The notes under the pieces: generated by a model
What the model was told of the DNA's origin: nothing
Databases searched by the model: none
The model's input: only the letters and a program-made list of their open reading frames with translations
Shown: piece by piece, positions 1,044 through 13,962 of the stretch
Position numbering within the stretch: position 1 is the first letter of the stretch
How the letters are laid out: every line of letters begins with the position of its first letter
Position numbers and translations under genes: made by a program
Assembly: GCA_964458565.1 (NCBI GenBank)
Contig: CAYWJO010000065.1
Coordinates: forward strand, 1 to 14,806
Length of the DNA stretch: 14,806 nucleotides
Source: an uncultured archaeon
GTDB lineage: Archaea > Asgardarchaeota > Thorarchaeia > Thorarchaeales > Thorarchaeaceae
Reading direction: 5' to 3'

Positions 1044-1172
1044 ATCTTAGACAGGAAATTATTCTATCTTAATTGTTCCCAATCGCGTATTCTATTGCAA
1101 TGCAAACCCTTTTTGCTTAGACATTTAAAGAACTAAGACCCAATTAGTGAAAGTGTAGTGTGGAGGATTCAG

Positions 1173-2450
1173 ATGACACATTCAGAACTCCAATTTTCAT
1201 TGGAACTCAAAGACCCACTTCATGGGTACATTGGAATCACCTCAGTAGAACAAGAACTACTCAACCTTCGTCATGTTCAGAGACTCCGCAATATTCGATC
1301 ACCTGCAGGTACTCGACTGGTATATCCCGGTGCAGATTCATCTCTGATGGGTGCCATGCTCGGAACTGTGCATATGACTGGACTATTTGCTAGGTACCTC
1401 GAAGCTGATTTAGATGAGGTACAAAAAGCACGTTTAGGGGCATTCCTCCTTATAATTGCGAAAGGTCCTTGGACGAATGTAATGGATGAGTATTTAGGAA
1501 CTAGAGGTCACAATCGAGTGAAGCTTGCTGATACCATTATCAAATCCTCCAGAGTTGGTGAAGTACTAAAAGACAATGGCTTTTCGCTCTCTGAATTATC
1601 CGATATTGTGACAAAGGGTATTCTGGTAAAGGGAATACGAATCAATCTAATGACTACTCCCATCAATCCTGAGTTGATTGAGAATCTTGATCGTGATTCG
1701 TATTTCACGGGGGTGGATTATTCCCAACTAGAATATCATAGGTTATTTACTAGTACTAGAGTAGCAAAAAACAAAATTGCTCTGAAGCGAGATGCCCTTT
1801 ATACCCTAGAATCCTACCTTTCTGCTGGAGCTAATATGTTTGACGCTGTTTATTATCACAAAACATGTCGTGCTGCAGAGTTAATGTTGCTAAGAATTCT
1901 AGAACTCGCTGGAAGTCATATCATGACACATCCTGAGCAAAACATAGACAAATTCCTTGAATACGATGACTTGACATTCCACCACATTCTGAGATATTGC
2001 AAGGAAGAAGACAATGAATCAGTCAAAGAAGCAGGTAGACTCTATGATGATTTCTGTAAGAGGTATCTGTTAAAACGAGCAAGCAGCAGATCTATCTCTG
2101 ACAAGAGTTTTCTTGATAGAATCTCAACTCCTGATGGTCTCTTTGCAATTGAAACAGAAATTGCTGAAGATGCAGGTATTGATCCAAGTATGGTCTATGT
2201 TGATTATCCCGACCGAACCTCAGTCGCATTCTATCCTGGAAAACACGATTTAGAAGATCTTGTTCTCTATGAACGGGGTTCCAAAGGTTATGAATTCTGG
2301 CCAGTCACGGAAATGAGTTTAACTGCTCGAAGTTTTGGTCGGAACTTGAAAAGAGTTCGAGTCTATACTAGTAGGGGATATCGTGCACGCGTGAAGAAGA
2401 CAGCCGATAAATTACTTGAGAGTCTTGATACCCCTGGAATGGAGATATAA
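1173..2450 (+). CDS. SAMHD1/YwfO-like HD-superfamily (dNTP triphosphohydrolase-like) protein, catalytic motifs degenerate
   Basis: Family landmarks KDPLHGYI, QRLRNI, VYPGA, GPW, RDSYFTG, VYYHK and YDD are present. Start placed at ATG 1173 behind GGAGG (1162-1166) rather than GTG 1158. The HD dyad and first metal His are absent (see findings). Confidence 0.88.
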   Translation: MTHSELQFSLELKDPLHGYIGITSVEQELLNLRHVQRLRNIRSPAGTRLVYPGADSSLMGAMLGTVHMTGLFARYLEADLDEVQKARLGAFLLIIAKGPWTNVMDEYLGTRGHNRVKLADTIIKSSRVGEVLKDNGFSLSELSDIVTKGILVKGIRINLMTTPINPELIENLDRDSYFTGVDYSQLEYHRLFTSTRVAKNKIALKRDALYTLESYLSAGANMFDAVYYHKTCRAAELMLLRILELAGSHIMTHPEQNIDKFLEYDDLTFHHILRYCKEEDNESVKEAGRLYDDFCKRYLLKRASSRSISDKSFLDRISTPDGLFAIETEIAEDAGIDPSMVYVDYPDRTSVAFYPGKHDLEDLVLYERGSKGYEFWPVTEMSLTARSFGRNLKRVRVYTSRGYRARVKKTADKLLESLDTPGMEI

Positions 2451-2528: not shown

Positions 2529-4805
2529 GTGTTCTCCTGTAAAAGATGTGGATTGCCTCTCTACATAGAGAGTGCGGAACTTAAAGATCGAATCCTCAAG
2601 ATGGACGTCAGTTGCCTTCGCGGACATAAGAGTGTACGACGTTTGTCTGAACAGCAAGCAACTGAAATTGCTGAGGACCTCTTCCAAAAAATAACTGTTT
2701 GTCTGGATTGCGGGTCAACGATGACTCAGATAACATCTGATTTACAAGGCCCCCGTGTTGAGGCTGATTTTCTATGTCCCATTCACGGTGTTCAAGGACG
2801 TGAATATCCCTCTTCATTCCTACCAGCAGTAGGTCTTCTTGATACAGGAGACGACGTGAGAAGAGCCATCATTAACGCTTTCAAATGCGATCAATGTGGA
2901 CGGCTCTTTGCTGTGCGTGGTATAGACCTGATACCAGGTGGTCTTGAGCTCGAGGTTAGGTGTCCAAATGGTCACAGGAATACAAGATACGTCCCAAATG
3001 ATTTGGACTCTGATTTAATGACAAAGATATTCCAGCTGACAGCTAGTTGTGATAAATGTGGTTTACTTGGACACATTGGTAAACTTGAAGAAAGGAAGAG
3101 GAAATCAAAGATATTTGTTACATGTCCTATTCATGGGGACGAACGAAAGGATATTCCTAATGAAATTCTATCAAATGTAAAGAAAGCCATTGAAGAGATA
3201 TCTCCGGAAGCAGTCGTTGGAGCTATGTTGGTGACACGAGATTGTAACCATCCACTGGCAATTCGCAGTATTGAAGAAACGAAGACTGGTTTCAAATTCA
3301 AGTGCATCTGTCCCATAAAAGGACATTCAATGGATCGGGAAATCCCAATCATTTGGAATGAGGCTGTGAAAGAGAGAATCACGGCAGGTCTCCTTACATG
3401 CAGTGAATGTGGCCTTATGACACAAATCATTGATAGCAAGAAGAGTAAGAAAAGTATTGATTTCAAAATAACATGTCCAATCCATGGAGTGATGGAACGT
3501 TCAGTAACTCCTGATATCTTCAAGTATGTTATGGAAACTAAAAACTCAATTGATCAATTACCTTCGATTATTAAGAGTCTGAGTTGTGAAAAGTGCCGAC
3601 TACCTTCAATTATTCGAGATGTAGAACATCGACAAAATCTAACGGAACTCGAAGTCGACTGTAAAAACGGGCATAGAAGTAAGCGGTTCTTTGCTCCAGA
3701 CCTAGATGAAGTAACTCTTGTTGCCCTTTACAAGAATTTGTACCGTTGTCCTGAATGCTATGAAGATTTAGAATTAGTTTACATTGAACCTCAAGGACGT
3801 GAGTCTCGTGTTGTTCTTTTATGTAGTCTTCATGGTAAACATGTTGTTGATATTCCTCCAGAACATGCTGGAGCCTTACATAGGGCGTATGAAGAAATCC
3901 AGAAAGAGAAGATACATCCTCCTGTTGAGGCGGCTCCCGAACCTGAGCCACCAACCCTTGAGCCCACCACAGAGAGCGTTGAAGACATTGACGAAGCGGT
4001 AGTAGTACTTCGCGGCTGCGAAATCATTGGTGGAAAATTCGACTACAAATGCAAGGTGAAGAATGATAGTGGATATGTTATTACGAATGTAACTGTGAGT
4101 ATAGTTGCTTATCCGCAAGATTGCATGGAATTAGCTGGTGAATCTGTAAAGACGATCTCACGGATTGAAGTGGACGGATTTAGGTCTCCTCAATTCACAC
4201 TGTATCCAACAAAAGACTGTGTCCAAGGAAAGATAGTTGCTACTGTATCATTCATTGACTTTCGTGACCAGCTTCATACAATTCAAGTAGAACCTTATCT
4301 GATTCGGTCAGTATGCGACCTGCTAAAACCTCTCGAAGCCACTTCAAAAGAATTTGATCTCATTCTCACAAACCTAACAAAAACTCAGCAAGAACAGACA
4401 CTTGATTGGAATGCCAAAGTTCTCTTCACCAAAGCTGAGAAATTGTTGCCCTCTAAGAATTTTCATATTGTCGATACTGAGGAGAAGTCAATAGGTGGTC
4501 AGTTCATAGGGCTCATCCGAGGTTATGCTCAGGGAAAATATACGGGTAAGAAAGTCGCGGTAGTGTTTCTTATCTCAGGTCCAGAGAGTGGTCGACACTC
4601 ACAGGTTAAGGTCGAAGCTCTTGGCGAAGACATCGCAATGTTACCTACAACAATAGATGAACTAGCTGAAACAATGGACTCTTGGATTTGTCTTCGATGC
4701 GGTGCTCCACTTGATGAGGAACAAATAAGCGAACTTCATACACGCCTTCCTATAAGATGTCGATATTGTGCTCATTCACTCACAATCGCGCTCTACTTGC
4801 AATGA
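2529..4805 (+). CDS. Multi-metal-ribbon repeat protein (8 CxxC-x21-Cx2-3H modules) with C-terminal Ig-like + platform (adaptin/COP appendage-like) domain and terminal CxxC...CxxC Zn ribbon
   Basis: 758-aa ORF with a GTG start preceded by AGGAAG. Periodic Cys/His motifs over aa 4-435, Pro/Glu linker aa ~464-489, beta-rich domain aa ~490-719, CLRC...CRYC at aa 721-747. The CDS is well supported; the domain names are inference. Confidence 0.85.
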   Translation: MFSCKRCGLPLYIESAELKDRILKMDVSCLRGHKSVRRLSEQQATEIAEDLFQKITVCLDCGSTMTQITSDLQGPRVEADFLCPIHGVQGREYPSSFLPAVGLLDTGDDVRRAIINAFKCDQCGRLFAVRGIDLIPGGLELEVRCPNGHRNTRYVPNDLDSDLMTKIFQLTASCDKCGLLGHIGKLEERKRKSKIFVTCPIHGDERKDIPNEILSNVKKAIEEISPEAVVGAMLVTRDCNHPLAIRSIEETKTGFKFKCICPIKGHSMDREIPIIWNEAVKERITAGLLTCSECGLMTQIIDSKKSKKSIDFKITCPIHGVMERSVTPDIFKYVMETKNSIDQLPSIIKSLSCEKCRLPSIIRDVEHRQNLTELEVDCKNGHRSKRFFAPDLDEVTLVALYKNLYRCPECYEDLELVYIEPQGRESRVVLLCSLHGKHVVDIPPEHAGALHRAYEEIQKEKIHPPVEAAPEPEPPTLEPTTESVEDIDEAVVVLRGCEIIGGKFDYKCKVKNDSGYVITNVTVSIVAYPQDCMELAGESVKTISRIEVDGFRSPQFTLYPTKDCVQGKIVATVSFIDFRDQLHTIQVEPYLIRSVCDLLKPLEATSKEFDLILTNLTKTQQEQTLDWNAKVLFTKAEKLLPSKNFHIVDTEEKSIGGQFIGLIRGYAQGKYTGKKVAVVFLISGPESGRHSQVKVEALGEDIAMLPTTIDELAETMDSWICLRCGAPLDEEQISELHTRLPIRCRYCAHSLTIALYLQ
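2538..3908 (+). repeat. Protein-level tandem repeat: 4 copies of a ~116-aa A+B double metal-ribbon unit
   Basis: Module starts at aa 4, 58, 120, 174, 236, 291, 353 and 407 (spacings 54, 62, 54, 62, 55, 62, 54). A modules end CxxGH (CPIKGH in the third) and B modules end CPIHG/CSLHG. No obvious identity remains at the DNA level. Confidence 0.9.
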
Positions 4806-11913: not shown

Positions 11914-12717
11914 TTACACTTCTTGAACATCAATTGTGAGTTCTTGGGAGCAAATTAGAAAACCACCGATTAAGATGTAGCCTTCAATAGCCAGAATTCC
12001 AACAATGACGAGGATGATCATTGTTGATGCATACCATACTAATAGACTACTCAGGTACATTGCCATTAATCCCAAAAACAAGTAGCGAATGATCCCTCCA
12101 ATATGCCCCTCACGGAGTGCATAGTACTGAGTATAAATAGAAGCTGTAATTAATCCCATGATAACCGAGAAGAACAAATACCATGTCGATTCATATGGAC
12201 CATATTCGACATTTGCACCAAGTATACTTGGAAATGCAAGTATTAATGCTAGGGCTCCGAAGACTAGTGCAATTGCCCAAAGACGTGGAAACGCAAAACC
12301 CAGCACATTATTTGAGGCTCTCACATAACCTGCGACTCCAAGTATCCATAGAATGAGTGCAGTTGCTCTAGCACTTGATACCATGTATGGAAGAACTTGG
12401 TTTTCTGGTTGACTCAATGCGATGGCATTAGCAATATCCGCTAATGCTAGAACAAGAATACCTGCCGATAGGAGCACTCCTAGCATATGGAATGTATCAT
12501 CATGAAATAAGCCAGAGGAGCTATATTTGAGGAGACCAAAAAATCCGACTCCAAAGCCAAGCATCGCTGAGACCACCGCCATTGTGATTCCAATTGAATT
12601 AGCGGGTAGACCAGTAAACGGCAATAAAAGAAGTGAAAGAGCAGCAATCCCTATTGTAGCAAATGGTAGTATTCCTACACATTTTTTTCGAATGTGAGGC
12701 TTTGCTGCTTCTGTCAT
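11914..12717 (-). CDS. Uncharacterised integral membrane protein (~8 TM helices), resembling stand-alone membrane sensor modules
   Basis: 267 aa, eight hydrophobic segments with short loops and no soluble domain; 51 bp downstream of the longin gene on the same strand. Confidence 0.8.
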   Translation of the reverse strand: MTEAAKPHIRKKCVGILPFATIGIAALSLLLLPFTGLPANSIGITMAVVSAMLGFGVGFFGLLKYSSSGLFHDDTFHMLGVLLSAGILVLALADIANAIALSQPENQVLPYMVSSARATALILWILGVAGYVRASNNVLGFAFPRLWAIALVFGALALILAFPSILGANVEYGPYESTWYLFFSVIMGLITASIYTQYYALREGHIGGIIRYLFLGLMAMYLSSLLVWYASTMIILVIVGILAIEGYILIGGFLICSQELTIDVQEV

Positions 12718-12768: not shown

Positions 12769-13962
12769 TTAAACGAAGAAACGTTCCCATTCAACTTCAA
12801 ATGCACGATTTGGGAAACGTGTTTCAACTTCATGTCGCGTTTGTGTGATAATCCTTTTCACGGGTGCCTTTCCTGTAAATTGATTTGCAGTCACACATAC
12901 CTCTTCCAATAATGCTCTTAATGCCTCTCGCAGTAATTGGGGTGATATTGCGCCTCTAGATACGCCCGCGATAAGTGATGGTCGCACCTCGATATCGACA
13001 TGCTCTTCTAACTCCACATACCCTAACCATGTGTATTGATTCACCAACTTGTTGCGTGCCTGAAGAAAGACCTGACGGGAGAGACGATATCCCAGTAGTT
13101 TGGAAAGCCTCTGTAAAAGACCTTGAAGGGTTGAGGCGTACAGGACTACTAATGCCTGTCCTGGTGAAACTTGCTCCACTTCTCTCCTTCTAGCAAGTGA
13201 TGCTATCTCTTGGAGAAACTGCCGTATATCAGATGTCTTGACTCTCTCTGCAGCTATGGAGAGTGGGGTTTCACCATCTAGCTGAGAGATAGCTCTTTTT
13301 ATCTCCTCTGAAACAGTCTGAGATGAATCACCGTTTTCTACAAATGTTGTTGGTTGATAGATATCATCTGGTCGAGGTAGCGTGGTTACTGTGACTGCTC
13401 TGTCCCAGAGCGCATCGACTGTGAGATTCATTGTAACCTCTACGGGAAGCTCGAGGAAATTACCTACATCTTCAACACTGCATTCTTCAGGTAATAGACT
13501 GAGAAACGCAGTGACATCTGGATTTCGAGTATAATATTCCCAATCTCTCTTTACATGAATTGTCGTGTGAGGATAGACCTGATCTCTGATGAACTCTTCA
13601 ATCATGACACGTTCAAAACGAGAATATACTGCAAGATCCATTTCAACCCAGCGAAGGAGATGAAACTGCTCCTCGAACCTGGCGATTACGCGAGATAGTT
13701 TATCTCTTAGAGCTGCTGTGTCATTTGAAGCAGCCATAGCTCCCATCGTCCACTCTCCGTTCTCAACGAGTAAGGTGTATCCTGTTCCTTCAAATGCTCT
13801 TGCTTTCGAATCTCGTGAGAGTGTTGCTTCATCAAAAAATGACGCCATCGCTACAATGAAGGATGAGAGTAAATGTGGGTCGAAAATCGATTCACCAAAG
13901 TCGTGATGGTACATACAAACCCCTGAGTCTCTTTTTATGATGTATAGGCTCTTCACGTCCAT
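12769..13962 (-). CDS. Longin-domain protein with two winged-helix-like repeats and a helical C-terminal domain
   Basis: aa 1-125 match the Asgard/eukaryotic longin pattern (SLYIIKRDSGVCMYHHDF...DPHLLSSFIVAMASFFDE...LSRVIARFEEQF...FERVMIEEF). aa ~148-193 and ~218-265 are wH-like (ISQLDGETPLSIAAE). GAGGT lies upstream of the ATG. Confidence 0.82.
   Translation of the reverse strand: MDVKSLYIIKRDSGVCMYHHDFGESIFDPHLLSSFIVAMASFFDEATLSRDSKARAFEGTGYTLLVENGEWTMGAMAASNDTAALRDKLSRVIARFEEQFHLLRWVEMDLAVYSRFERVMIEEFIRDQVYPHTTIHVKRDWEYYTRNPDVTAFLSLLPEECSVEDVGNFLELPVEVTMNLTVDALWDRAVTVTTLPRPDDIYQPTTFVENGDSSQTVSEEIKRAISQLDGETPLSIAAERVKTSDIRQFLQEIASLARRREVEQVSPGQALVVLYASTLQGLLQRLSKLLGYRLSRQVFLQARNKLVNQYTWLGYVELEEHVDIEVRPSLIAGVSRGAISPQLLREALRALLEEVCVTANQFTGKAPVKRIITQTRHEVETRFPNRAFEVEWERFFV

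Follow-up and report, generated by a model that had tools for sequence, protein, structure and literature searches.

The stretch of DNA analysed here, called the window throughout, comprises positions 1 to 14,806 of contig CAYWJO010000065.1, from an uncultured archaeon of the Thorarchaeaceae (Asgardarchaeota; assembly GCA_964458565.1). It harbours a gene for a protein, P0001, that is related to SAMHD1 and EF1143, HD-type deoxynucleoside triphosphate (dNTP) triphosphohydrolases, and that lacks the HD residues on which this chemistry depends. The reading frame is unbroken over 425 codons and its ATG start fits the length of most listed orthologues (419-433 aa). The original prediction of a full-length open reading frame (ORF) with a good ribosome-binding site is borne out by a GGAGG motif close to the start codon, and a TTTAAA element further upstream is inferred to be a putative promoter element (Table 1). 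The window has a G+C content of ~41% and the rest of its gene content is typically archaeal, including genes for a DUF2070 protein, a ZPR1 zinc finger protein, a flavoprotein, an ABC exporter pair and an M28 peptidase (Pfam).

Sequence and predicted structure place P0001 in the EF1143/SAMHD1-type family. The only Pfam match is HD_assoc_2 (PF19276; E 1.3e-21, 77.5 bits against a cut-off of 23.1), which is also the sole precomputed Pfam family for all 120 listed orthologue clusters. The HD profile PF01966 gave no match to P0001 at E <= 0.01, a search of NCBIfam returned none, and the PADLOC defence profiles, which include dGTPase, matched neither P0001 nor its downstream neighbour P0121. When P0001 alone was searched against PDB sequences with HMMER, the best matches were Aquifex 2HEK (4e-20) and EF1143 2O6I (6e-16), followed by 2Q14 and fungal SAMHD1 9MR6; E values for the EF1143/2HEK/2Q14 group ranged from 4e-20 to 3e-13, and human SAMHD1 matched only the N-terminal 75 residues. 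A profile of 106 family members matched 2hek (E 2.4e-89), EF1143 (3e-75) and human SAMHD1 (1e-60) over the full length, with a range of 2e-89 to 3e-67 for the EF1143/2HEK/2Q14 group, and this profile-to-PDB alignment fixes the residue numbering used below. AlphaFold2, supplied with the 106-member family alignment, returned a monomer with a mean predicted local distance difference test score (pLDDT) of 93.1 and a predicted template modelling score (pTM) of 0.90. The top Foldseek matches of this model in the PDB are all SAMHD1/EF1143-type structures: 9mr6 (E 2.6e-18, TM-score 0.78), 3irh (TM 0.72), human 4zwg (TM 0.77) and also 2hek, with overall ranges of E 1e-16 to 3e-18 and TM 0.68-0.78. As modelled, P0001 is thus a well-folded member of this homologous family. 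The closest solved structures by sequence are EF1143 of Enterococcus faecalis, 2HEK (Aquifex O67745) and 2Q14 (Bacteroides BT4208). All three are HD dNTP triphosphohydrolases that form tetramers, each subunit having a single interface site specific for dGTP, and they share with P0001 the same fold (TM 0.68-0.73) and the HD_assoc_2 C-terminal region. SAMHD1, human or fungal (9MR6), is the top structural match; P0001 differs from it in the missing SAM domain and is only 15-18% identical to it.

Against this background of clear homology, the catalytic site of P0001 has been erased. The quartet of metal ligands H...HD...D is replaced by A61, L93-I94 and E167, which correspond to SAMHD1 H167, H206, D207 and D311, and only the change of D311 is conservative. 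The substrate pocket has fared no better: R164 is replaced by L58, Q149 by S43, L150 by P44, H210 by K97, H215 by N102, H233 by R115, K312 by L168, Y315 by N171 and R366 by G219. In the HMMER alignments the family motif HTRFEHSLG reads S56-S57-L58-M59-G60-A61-M62-L63-G64, LLHDxGHxPFSH reads L92-L93-I94-I95-A96-K97-G98-P99-W100-T101-N102, DxxDYLxRD reads E167-L168-I169-E170-N171-L172-D173-R174-D175, with R174 and D175 kept, and IKQLG reads I41-R42-S43-P44-A45. The substitutions claimed for these four motifs and for ten SAMHD1-numbered residues were each reproduced in the 2hek, 2o6i and 2q14 alignments. Seen from EF1143, R63, Q48, H114, H119 and all metal ligands are replaced; within the catalytic dyad the position aligned to His-129 has changed and that of Glu-122 is still acidic (residue 105). 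P0001 has a different residue at the equivalents of R164, Q149, H210, H215, H233, K312, Y315 and R366, as do 90% or more of orthologues, and for the catalytic residues as a group replacement extends to at least 95% of 120 orthologue clusters. Moreover, 17 positions with 85% or higher conservation among 137 active relatives have all been changed in P0001, almost every one of them within a catalytic motif or next to it. Since the homology is strong and the loss of HD is confined to one clade among ~140 full-length representatives, the pattern of substitutions is not due to chance. Positions 61, 93, 94 and 97 differ among orthologues, as expected for former metal ligands once the site is out of use. 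The old pocket is now mostly hydrophobic (L58, M59, L93, I94, L168, P44) and none of its positively charged triphosphate ligands is left (the equivalents of R164, K312, R366, H210 and H215), which makes dNTP binding in the former active site unlikely as judged from the sequence. A compensating positive charge in the old metal site was considered, and R61 in 83% of orthologues and the pairing of A61 with K97 in P0001 and P0002 are suggestive, but at least 8 of the 120 clusters have no such residue and the idea was rejected.

The loss is not a peculiarity of one genome. Our orthologue set consists of the 120 clusters listed among the 203 matches of a 90%-cluster search; they are 55-76% identical to P0001 and none retains the full ligand set. 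Position 61 is Arg in 83%, Lys in 5% and His in 3%, position 93 is Leu in 66%, position 94 is Met in 63% and position 167 is Glu in 95%. The named close homologues are nearly all from metagenome-assembled genomes (MAGs) of Candidatus Thorarchaeota. An HMMER search of 1.84 billion representatives yielded one further HD-less sequence at 51% identity (474 bits), the rest being at most 35% identical (up to 206 bits), and among the ~140 full-length representatives in the top 150 the HD residues are missing only in P0001, P0122 and P0126. The 400 species genomes of the phylum that were searched include 85 from the window's family, and 72 of these, with all 15 other genera represented, encode high-scoring orthologues of 48-61% identity. 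The 13 family genomes in which no orthologue was found are MAGs of 52-93% completeness, and in at least three of them (G321, G391, G396) no more than ~170 bp of contig is left beyond the neighbouring gene, in the direction in which the HD-less gene is expected. Outside the window's family these 400 genomes gave only matches of ~30% identity at E <= 1e-40. The single genome of the sister family, G311, encodes a 413-aa HD-less protein that is 28% identical to P0001 and resembles P0126; its gene is flanked by POR and DUF2070 genes, the same arrangement as in the family of the window. The clade-wide absence of HD that the original prediction called for checking therefore extends to 120 of 120 clusters, 72 of 85 family genomes and the sister family. 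Two orthologue matches in genus g13 (G383:C97:2052-3308 and G382:C114:4140-5396) contain one in-frame TGA each; the longest stop-free ORFs there are 426 and 422 aa, and the TGA probably lies at the end of the match, not inside the gene. In a quick maximum-likelihood tree of 64 sequences (IQ-TREE), all 13 HD-less proteins fall into one clade (Shimodaira-Hasegawa-like approximate likelihood ratio test, SH-aLRT, 100) on a stem of 0.72 substitutions per site, nested in a poorly resolved archaeal HD-intact group that includes the C5 paralogue from the same genome as P0001. One ancient loss of HD is the most parsimonious account of this single clade; it is subject to the caveat of long-branch attraction, against which the shared synteny speaks.

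The gene is under purifying selection. Pairs of P0001 orthologues have nonsynonymous to synonymous substitution ratios (dN/dS) of 0.04-0.12 at dS 0.20-0.65 (Nei-Gojobori), compared with 0.03-0.07 for the HD-intact C5-type paralogue in the same genome pairs; the analysis was limited to pairs with dS below ~0.7, dS being saturated at family level. Over 21 genomes the mean pairwise identity is 63% for the HD-less copy versus 79% for this paralogue. The HD-less copy evolves faster yet is under clear constraint, and so is not decaying. The original prediction had proposed selective loss rather than decay and had named a degenerate copy under relaxed selection as the alternative: no relaxed selection is apparent, and close orthologues are also without HD.

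The paralogue just mentioned is one of two further HD_assoc_2 genes in the source genome (G000), on contigs C5 and C1, both HD-intact, so that the active-type paralogues supposed by the original prediction do exist in the same genome. Both have a weak PADLOC dGTPase match, which P0001 has not. The C1 paralogue carries a ~70-aa N-terminal extension, sits on a very long tree branch (1.64) and may represent a distinct subfamily. Three paralogues are present in G311 as well, where the HD-intact ones co-occur with the HD-less copy, and a second match of the C5 type (~30% identity) is found in most family genomes that carry the HD-less gene. We also considered subfunctionalisation, in which the active paralogue would have shed its own allosteric motifs, and rejected it: the C5 protein keeps IID..QRLR and the RxxxK motif, and with its allosteric motifs complete there is no sign of a division of catalytic and regulatory labour.

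What has been preserved is the guanine-nucleotide site at the subunit interface. The dGTP effector site of EF1143 is built from K14, N36, Q41, R44, F64, R326 and K330, contributed by two chains, and 2HEK and 2Q14 were crystallised with guanosine diphosphate (GDP) and adenosine diphosphate (ADP) in the corresponding interface pockets (Vorontsov et al., PMC3190883). The equivalents of these residues in P0001 are given in Table 1. R39 and K301 are stricter in the HD-less clade (100% each) than in the 137 active relatives (89% and 86%), and the R297 equivalent reaches 100% versus 99%. Y227 and H229 are likewise invariant in the clade and K230 is conserved to 99%; in P0001 itself R190 (SAMHD1 R333), Y227 (Y374), H229 (H376) and K230 (K377) are all kept. 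The claim that allosteric-type residues are retained holds in part. The motifs DPLHG, QRLR and YYHK are present, but K116 of SAMHD1 is replaced by L10, and several site-2 residues are lost: N119 is K13, R352 is K205 (Glu in 87% of orthologues), K354 is D207 and N358 is T211.

The clade has also acquired features of its own. Comparison of the two groups identified 39 positions conserved in both, 17 conserved only in the active relatives and 57 only in the HD-less clade; the C-terminal lobe holds many of the last group, among them a GYEFW insertion. The residues G372, Y373, E374, F375 and W376 are at least 90% conserved in the clade and fall in a gap in 74-95% of active relatives, and AlphaFold2 predicts strands at 363-369 and 372-377 around them. 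Within and around the former catalytic motifs, N102, G98, P99, W100, N165, P166, L168, R174 and D175 are 99-100% conserved among the HD-less proteins.

Table 1. Features of the HD-less gene and its protein, interface residues and related genes (positions are those of the window unless a locus is named).
Feature	Position	Strand	Remarks
Coding sequence, HD-less SAMHD1/EF1143-type protein P0001	1173..2450	+	ATG 1173, stop 2448-2450, 425 aa
GGAGG Shine-Dalgarno-like motif	1162..1166	+	6 nt 5' of ATG; read from sequence
TTTAAA TATA-box-like element	1124..1129	+	~45 nt 5' of start codon; putative; read from sequence
Interface site 1, first half, residues 31-39, N-L-R-H-V-Q-R-L-R	1263..1289	+	alignments; roles from PMC3190883
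Former HxRFxHSLG, residues 54-64, ADSSLMGAMLG	1332..1364	+	R164→L58, H167→A61 (Arg in 83% of orthologues)
Former LLHDxGHGPFSH, residues 90-103, AFLLIIAKGPWTNV	1440..1481	+	H206→L93, D207→I94, H210→K97, H215→N102
Former DxDKxDYLxRD, residues 165-175, NPELIENLDRD	1665..1697	+	D311→E167, K312→L168, Y315→N171
HD_assoc_2 (PF19276) region, residues 188-416	1734..2420	+	Pfam
YYHK, residues 227-230	1851..1862	+	kept; SAMHD1 Y374, H376, K377
Interface site, second half, residues 297-301, RYLLK	2061..2075	+	profile-to-PDB alignment
GSKGYEFW insertion/hairpin, residues 369-376	2277..2300	+	C-terminal lobe; clade-specific
EF1143 K14 / SAMHD1 K116 / P0001 L10			Leu in 73% of 120 clusters
EF1143 N36 / SAMHD1 D137 / P0001 N31			Asp in 95% of 120 clusters
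EF1143 Q41 / SAMHD1 Q142 / P0001 Q36			100% of 120 clusters
EF1143 R44 / SAMHD1 R145 / P0001 R39			100% of 120 clusters
EF1143 F64 / SAMHD1 F165 / P0001 M59			Met in 87% of 120 clusters; conservative change
EF1143 R326 / SAMHD1 R451 / P0001 R297			100% of 120 clusters; guanine-stacking residue
EF1143 K330 / SAMHD1 K455 / P0001 K301			100% of 120 clusters; phosphate-binding residue
P0121, 758 aa, Cys3His-ribbon array and C-terminal domain	2529..4805	+	genomic context
C5 paralogue, 437 aa	L001 1468-2781	-	HxRFxH, LLHDxGH..SH, DxDKxDY intact; ~31% identical to P0001
C1 paralogue, 506 aa	L003 1444-2964	-	HxRFxH, LLHDxGH..SH, DxDKxDY intact

The gene that follows on the same strand encodes P0121, which consists of eight CxxC...CxxH ribbons, a Pro/Glu-rich linker and a ~290-aa C-terminal domain (~465-757) and matches no Pfam family above threshold. 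Its C-terminal domain, which has no Pfam family, is a module that has expanded within the lineage: a single Thorarchaeota genome can contain as many as 12 separate matches (for example G321), located in open frames of 250-2388 aa. A full-length P0121 orthologue adjoins the HD-less gene downstream, in the same orientation, in ~45 family genomes from at least 10 genera, and in genus g12 this place is occupied by a ribbon paralogue of ~630 aa. A second ribbon paralogue of ~620-700 aa, 33-36% identical over P0121 residues 1-455, stands in tandem 3' of the 758-aa gene in genus g11 and others (e.g. G346:C85:3242-4609, G357:C25:6514-7884) and is the sole adjoining copy in g12. The spacer between the HD-less gene and the ribbon gene measures 78 bp in the window and up to ~700 bp elsewhere. 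In some genomes a 155-aa ORF without a Pfam match intervenes (L005 9345-9812 and L006 4947-5414, both on the forward strand); spacers of ~600-700 bp at many loci suggest the same ORF, which is absent from the window. In G311 a P0121 orthologue of 37% identity is found ~40 kb from the HD-less gene. The gene that does adjoin the HD-less orthologue there (394 aa, Big_7) was examined as a possible P0121 relative and rejected (BLASTP E 0.41); being unrelated to P0121, it indicates that the gene pair is not conserved at order level. Elsewhere in the window, two reverse-strand ORFs, 12769-13962 (397 aa) and 11914-12717 (267 aa), have no significant Pfam family.

What might P0001 do without a catalytic site? 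Essential residues have been lost, selection is purifying, the loss is clade-wide and its origin single, which is the operational definition of a pseudoenzyme, and we are highly confident that P0001 is a maintained one. A gene copy in progressive decay, or an artefact of annotation, would fit the loss of every catalytic residue were this copy considered alone; intact frames in ~70 genomes, dN/dS of 0.04-0.12, dozens of invariant residues and a confident AlphaFold2 model speak against it, and residue conservation, distribution and dN/dS together refute it, so that its chance of being right is negligible. A protein that is still an enzyme, catalysing a different reaction in a remodelled site (acidic 105, E167, D170, D175 and N102), is very improbable. 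In its favour, the clade conserves N102, E167, D170 and D175 to 95-100%; yet all His ligands are gone, the equivalents of the acid/base pair H233/E234 are R115/V116, the positive triphosphate ligands are lost, the pocket is mostly hydrophobic and the former ligand positions vary. Because selection has preserved the protein across the Thorarchaeota lineage, a non-catalytic nucleotide-binding regulator is a probable identity, and from the residues kept at the interface we favour, with some reserve, a regulator or sensor that would bind (deoxy)guanosine triphosphate, (d)GTP, and would probably be oligomeric. Nucleotide binding, oligomerisation and the regulatory or sensor role are the parts of this proposal that we infer. 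Several observations count against the proposal of a non-catalytic (d)GTP-binding regulator. The phosphate-binding lysine, EF1143 K14 or SAMHD1 K116, is L10 here (it is Lys in just 40% of active relatives), the guanine-contacting Asp is Asn (N31) in P0001 itself, and an unconventional metal site is conceivable from the acidic residues near the old one (105, E167, 170, D175). The site-1 residues that are kept are, in addition, conserved across the whole family and are partly structural, R44 of EF1143 bonding the main chain of helix alpha4 (PMC3190883), and their retention is therefore no proof of ligand binding.

If P0001 is such a regulator, its state may be read by one of several candidate partners. 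Regulation of other family members is a common fate of pseudoenzyme paralogues, and P0001 may act as a dominant-negative or tuning subunit in mixed tetramers with the HD-intact paralogues, altering their allosteric activation and hence the dNTP pool. Intact paralogues are at hand in G000 and G311, with a C5-type second match in most family genomes, and neither half of the nucleotide site between subunits has been lost. We nevertheless hold this arrangement to be rather unlikely: identity to the active paralogue is only ~30%, there are 57 clade-specific positions and an insertion in the interface-forming C-terminal lobe, the C5 protein with its full allosteric motifs bears no signature of subfunctionalisation, and the genes are unlinked (contigs C65, C5 and C1). 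A two-protein system, with the HD-less protein as nucleotide sensor and the ribbon-bearing, appendage-like P0121 as effector or adaptor, is suggested by their adjacency in ~45 genomes and by the g12 paralogue in the same place, and we judge it unlikely. The wider neighbourhood (POR, flavoprotein, DUF2070, PadR, ABC) is equally syntenic, and the adjacency may thus be inherited gene order. Furthermore, the two genes are ~40 kb apart in G311, where POR and DUF2070 still flank the HD-less gene, and the spacer is variable and sometimes holds the extra ORF. In genus g13 no P0121 homologue was found within ~1.5 kb downstream in G382 and G384, nor genome-wide with P0121 as query (the locus in G383 ends ~60 bp 3' of the HD-less gene). 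By analogy with what has been described for the allosteric sites of SAMHD1, the guanine pocket or interface might instead hold G-containing single-stranded RNA or DNA, for which the retention of guanine-specific residues could be invoked. This is improbable, as Pfam detected no added nucleic-acid-binding domain and the literature examined reports no such activity for prokaryotic EF1143-type proteins. Lastly, P0001 could be an 'allosteric-site-only', (d)GTP-gated oligomeric switch that has moved off dNTPs to control a non-enzymatic partner, most plausibly P0121; we regard this as a doubtful proposition.

Returning to the non-catalytic (d)GTP-binding regulator, we propose the following course of events. 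A paralogue of a tetrameric EF1143/SAMHD1-type dNTP triphosphohydrolase would have arisen once, at the base of the sampled Thorarchaeota lineage. After duplication, a burst of substitutions would have erased the H..HD..D metal site along with every pocket residue that binds the triphosphate or the sugar, and strong purifying selection would then have resumed. The protein still has the two halves of the guanine-nucleotide pocket between subunits (allosteric site 1) and has gained a conserved surface of its own, including GYEFW. The present-day oligomer would bind GTP or dGTP at its subunit interfaces and hydrolyse nothing. Nucleotide level may in this way be converted into a state of assembly or conformation, for which the active paralogues or some other protein would serve as the reading partner.

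What are the implications of an HD-less branch for this family? P0001 and its orthologues form a pseudoenzyme branch of the known EF1143/SAMHD1 family. Full-text literature searches and recent family surveys contained no description of an HD-less Asgard clade, which does not prove that none has been published. In the source records these proteins are annotated as 'hypothetical protein' or 'HD superfamily phosphohydrolase', and an ESM Atlas cluster is automatically named 'HD associated region domain-containing protein'. The HD-less genes should not carry a phosphohydrolase annotation, and S57-x2-G60, G98-P99-W100-x-N102, N165-P166-E167-L168 and the GYEFW insertion provide a signature for re-annotation. 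SAMHD1-type enzymes link a guanine-nucleotide sensing site to the destruction of dNTPs; here the sensing half has apparently been kept and the chemistry discarded, a state that seems to have lasted for family-to-order-level evolutionary time or longer in this Asgard group. If binding of GTP or dGTP and oligomerisation hold true, these proteins would offer a clean natural system for allosteric assembly without turnover. Should the switch pair with P0121, the two would constitute an undescribed nucleotide-sensing two-protein module in this Asgard lineage. More broadly, the regulator proposed here would represent a layer of control over the dNTP pool or signalling in Asgard archaea that current annotation masks.

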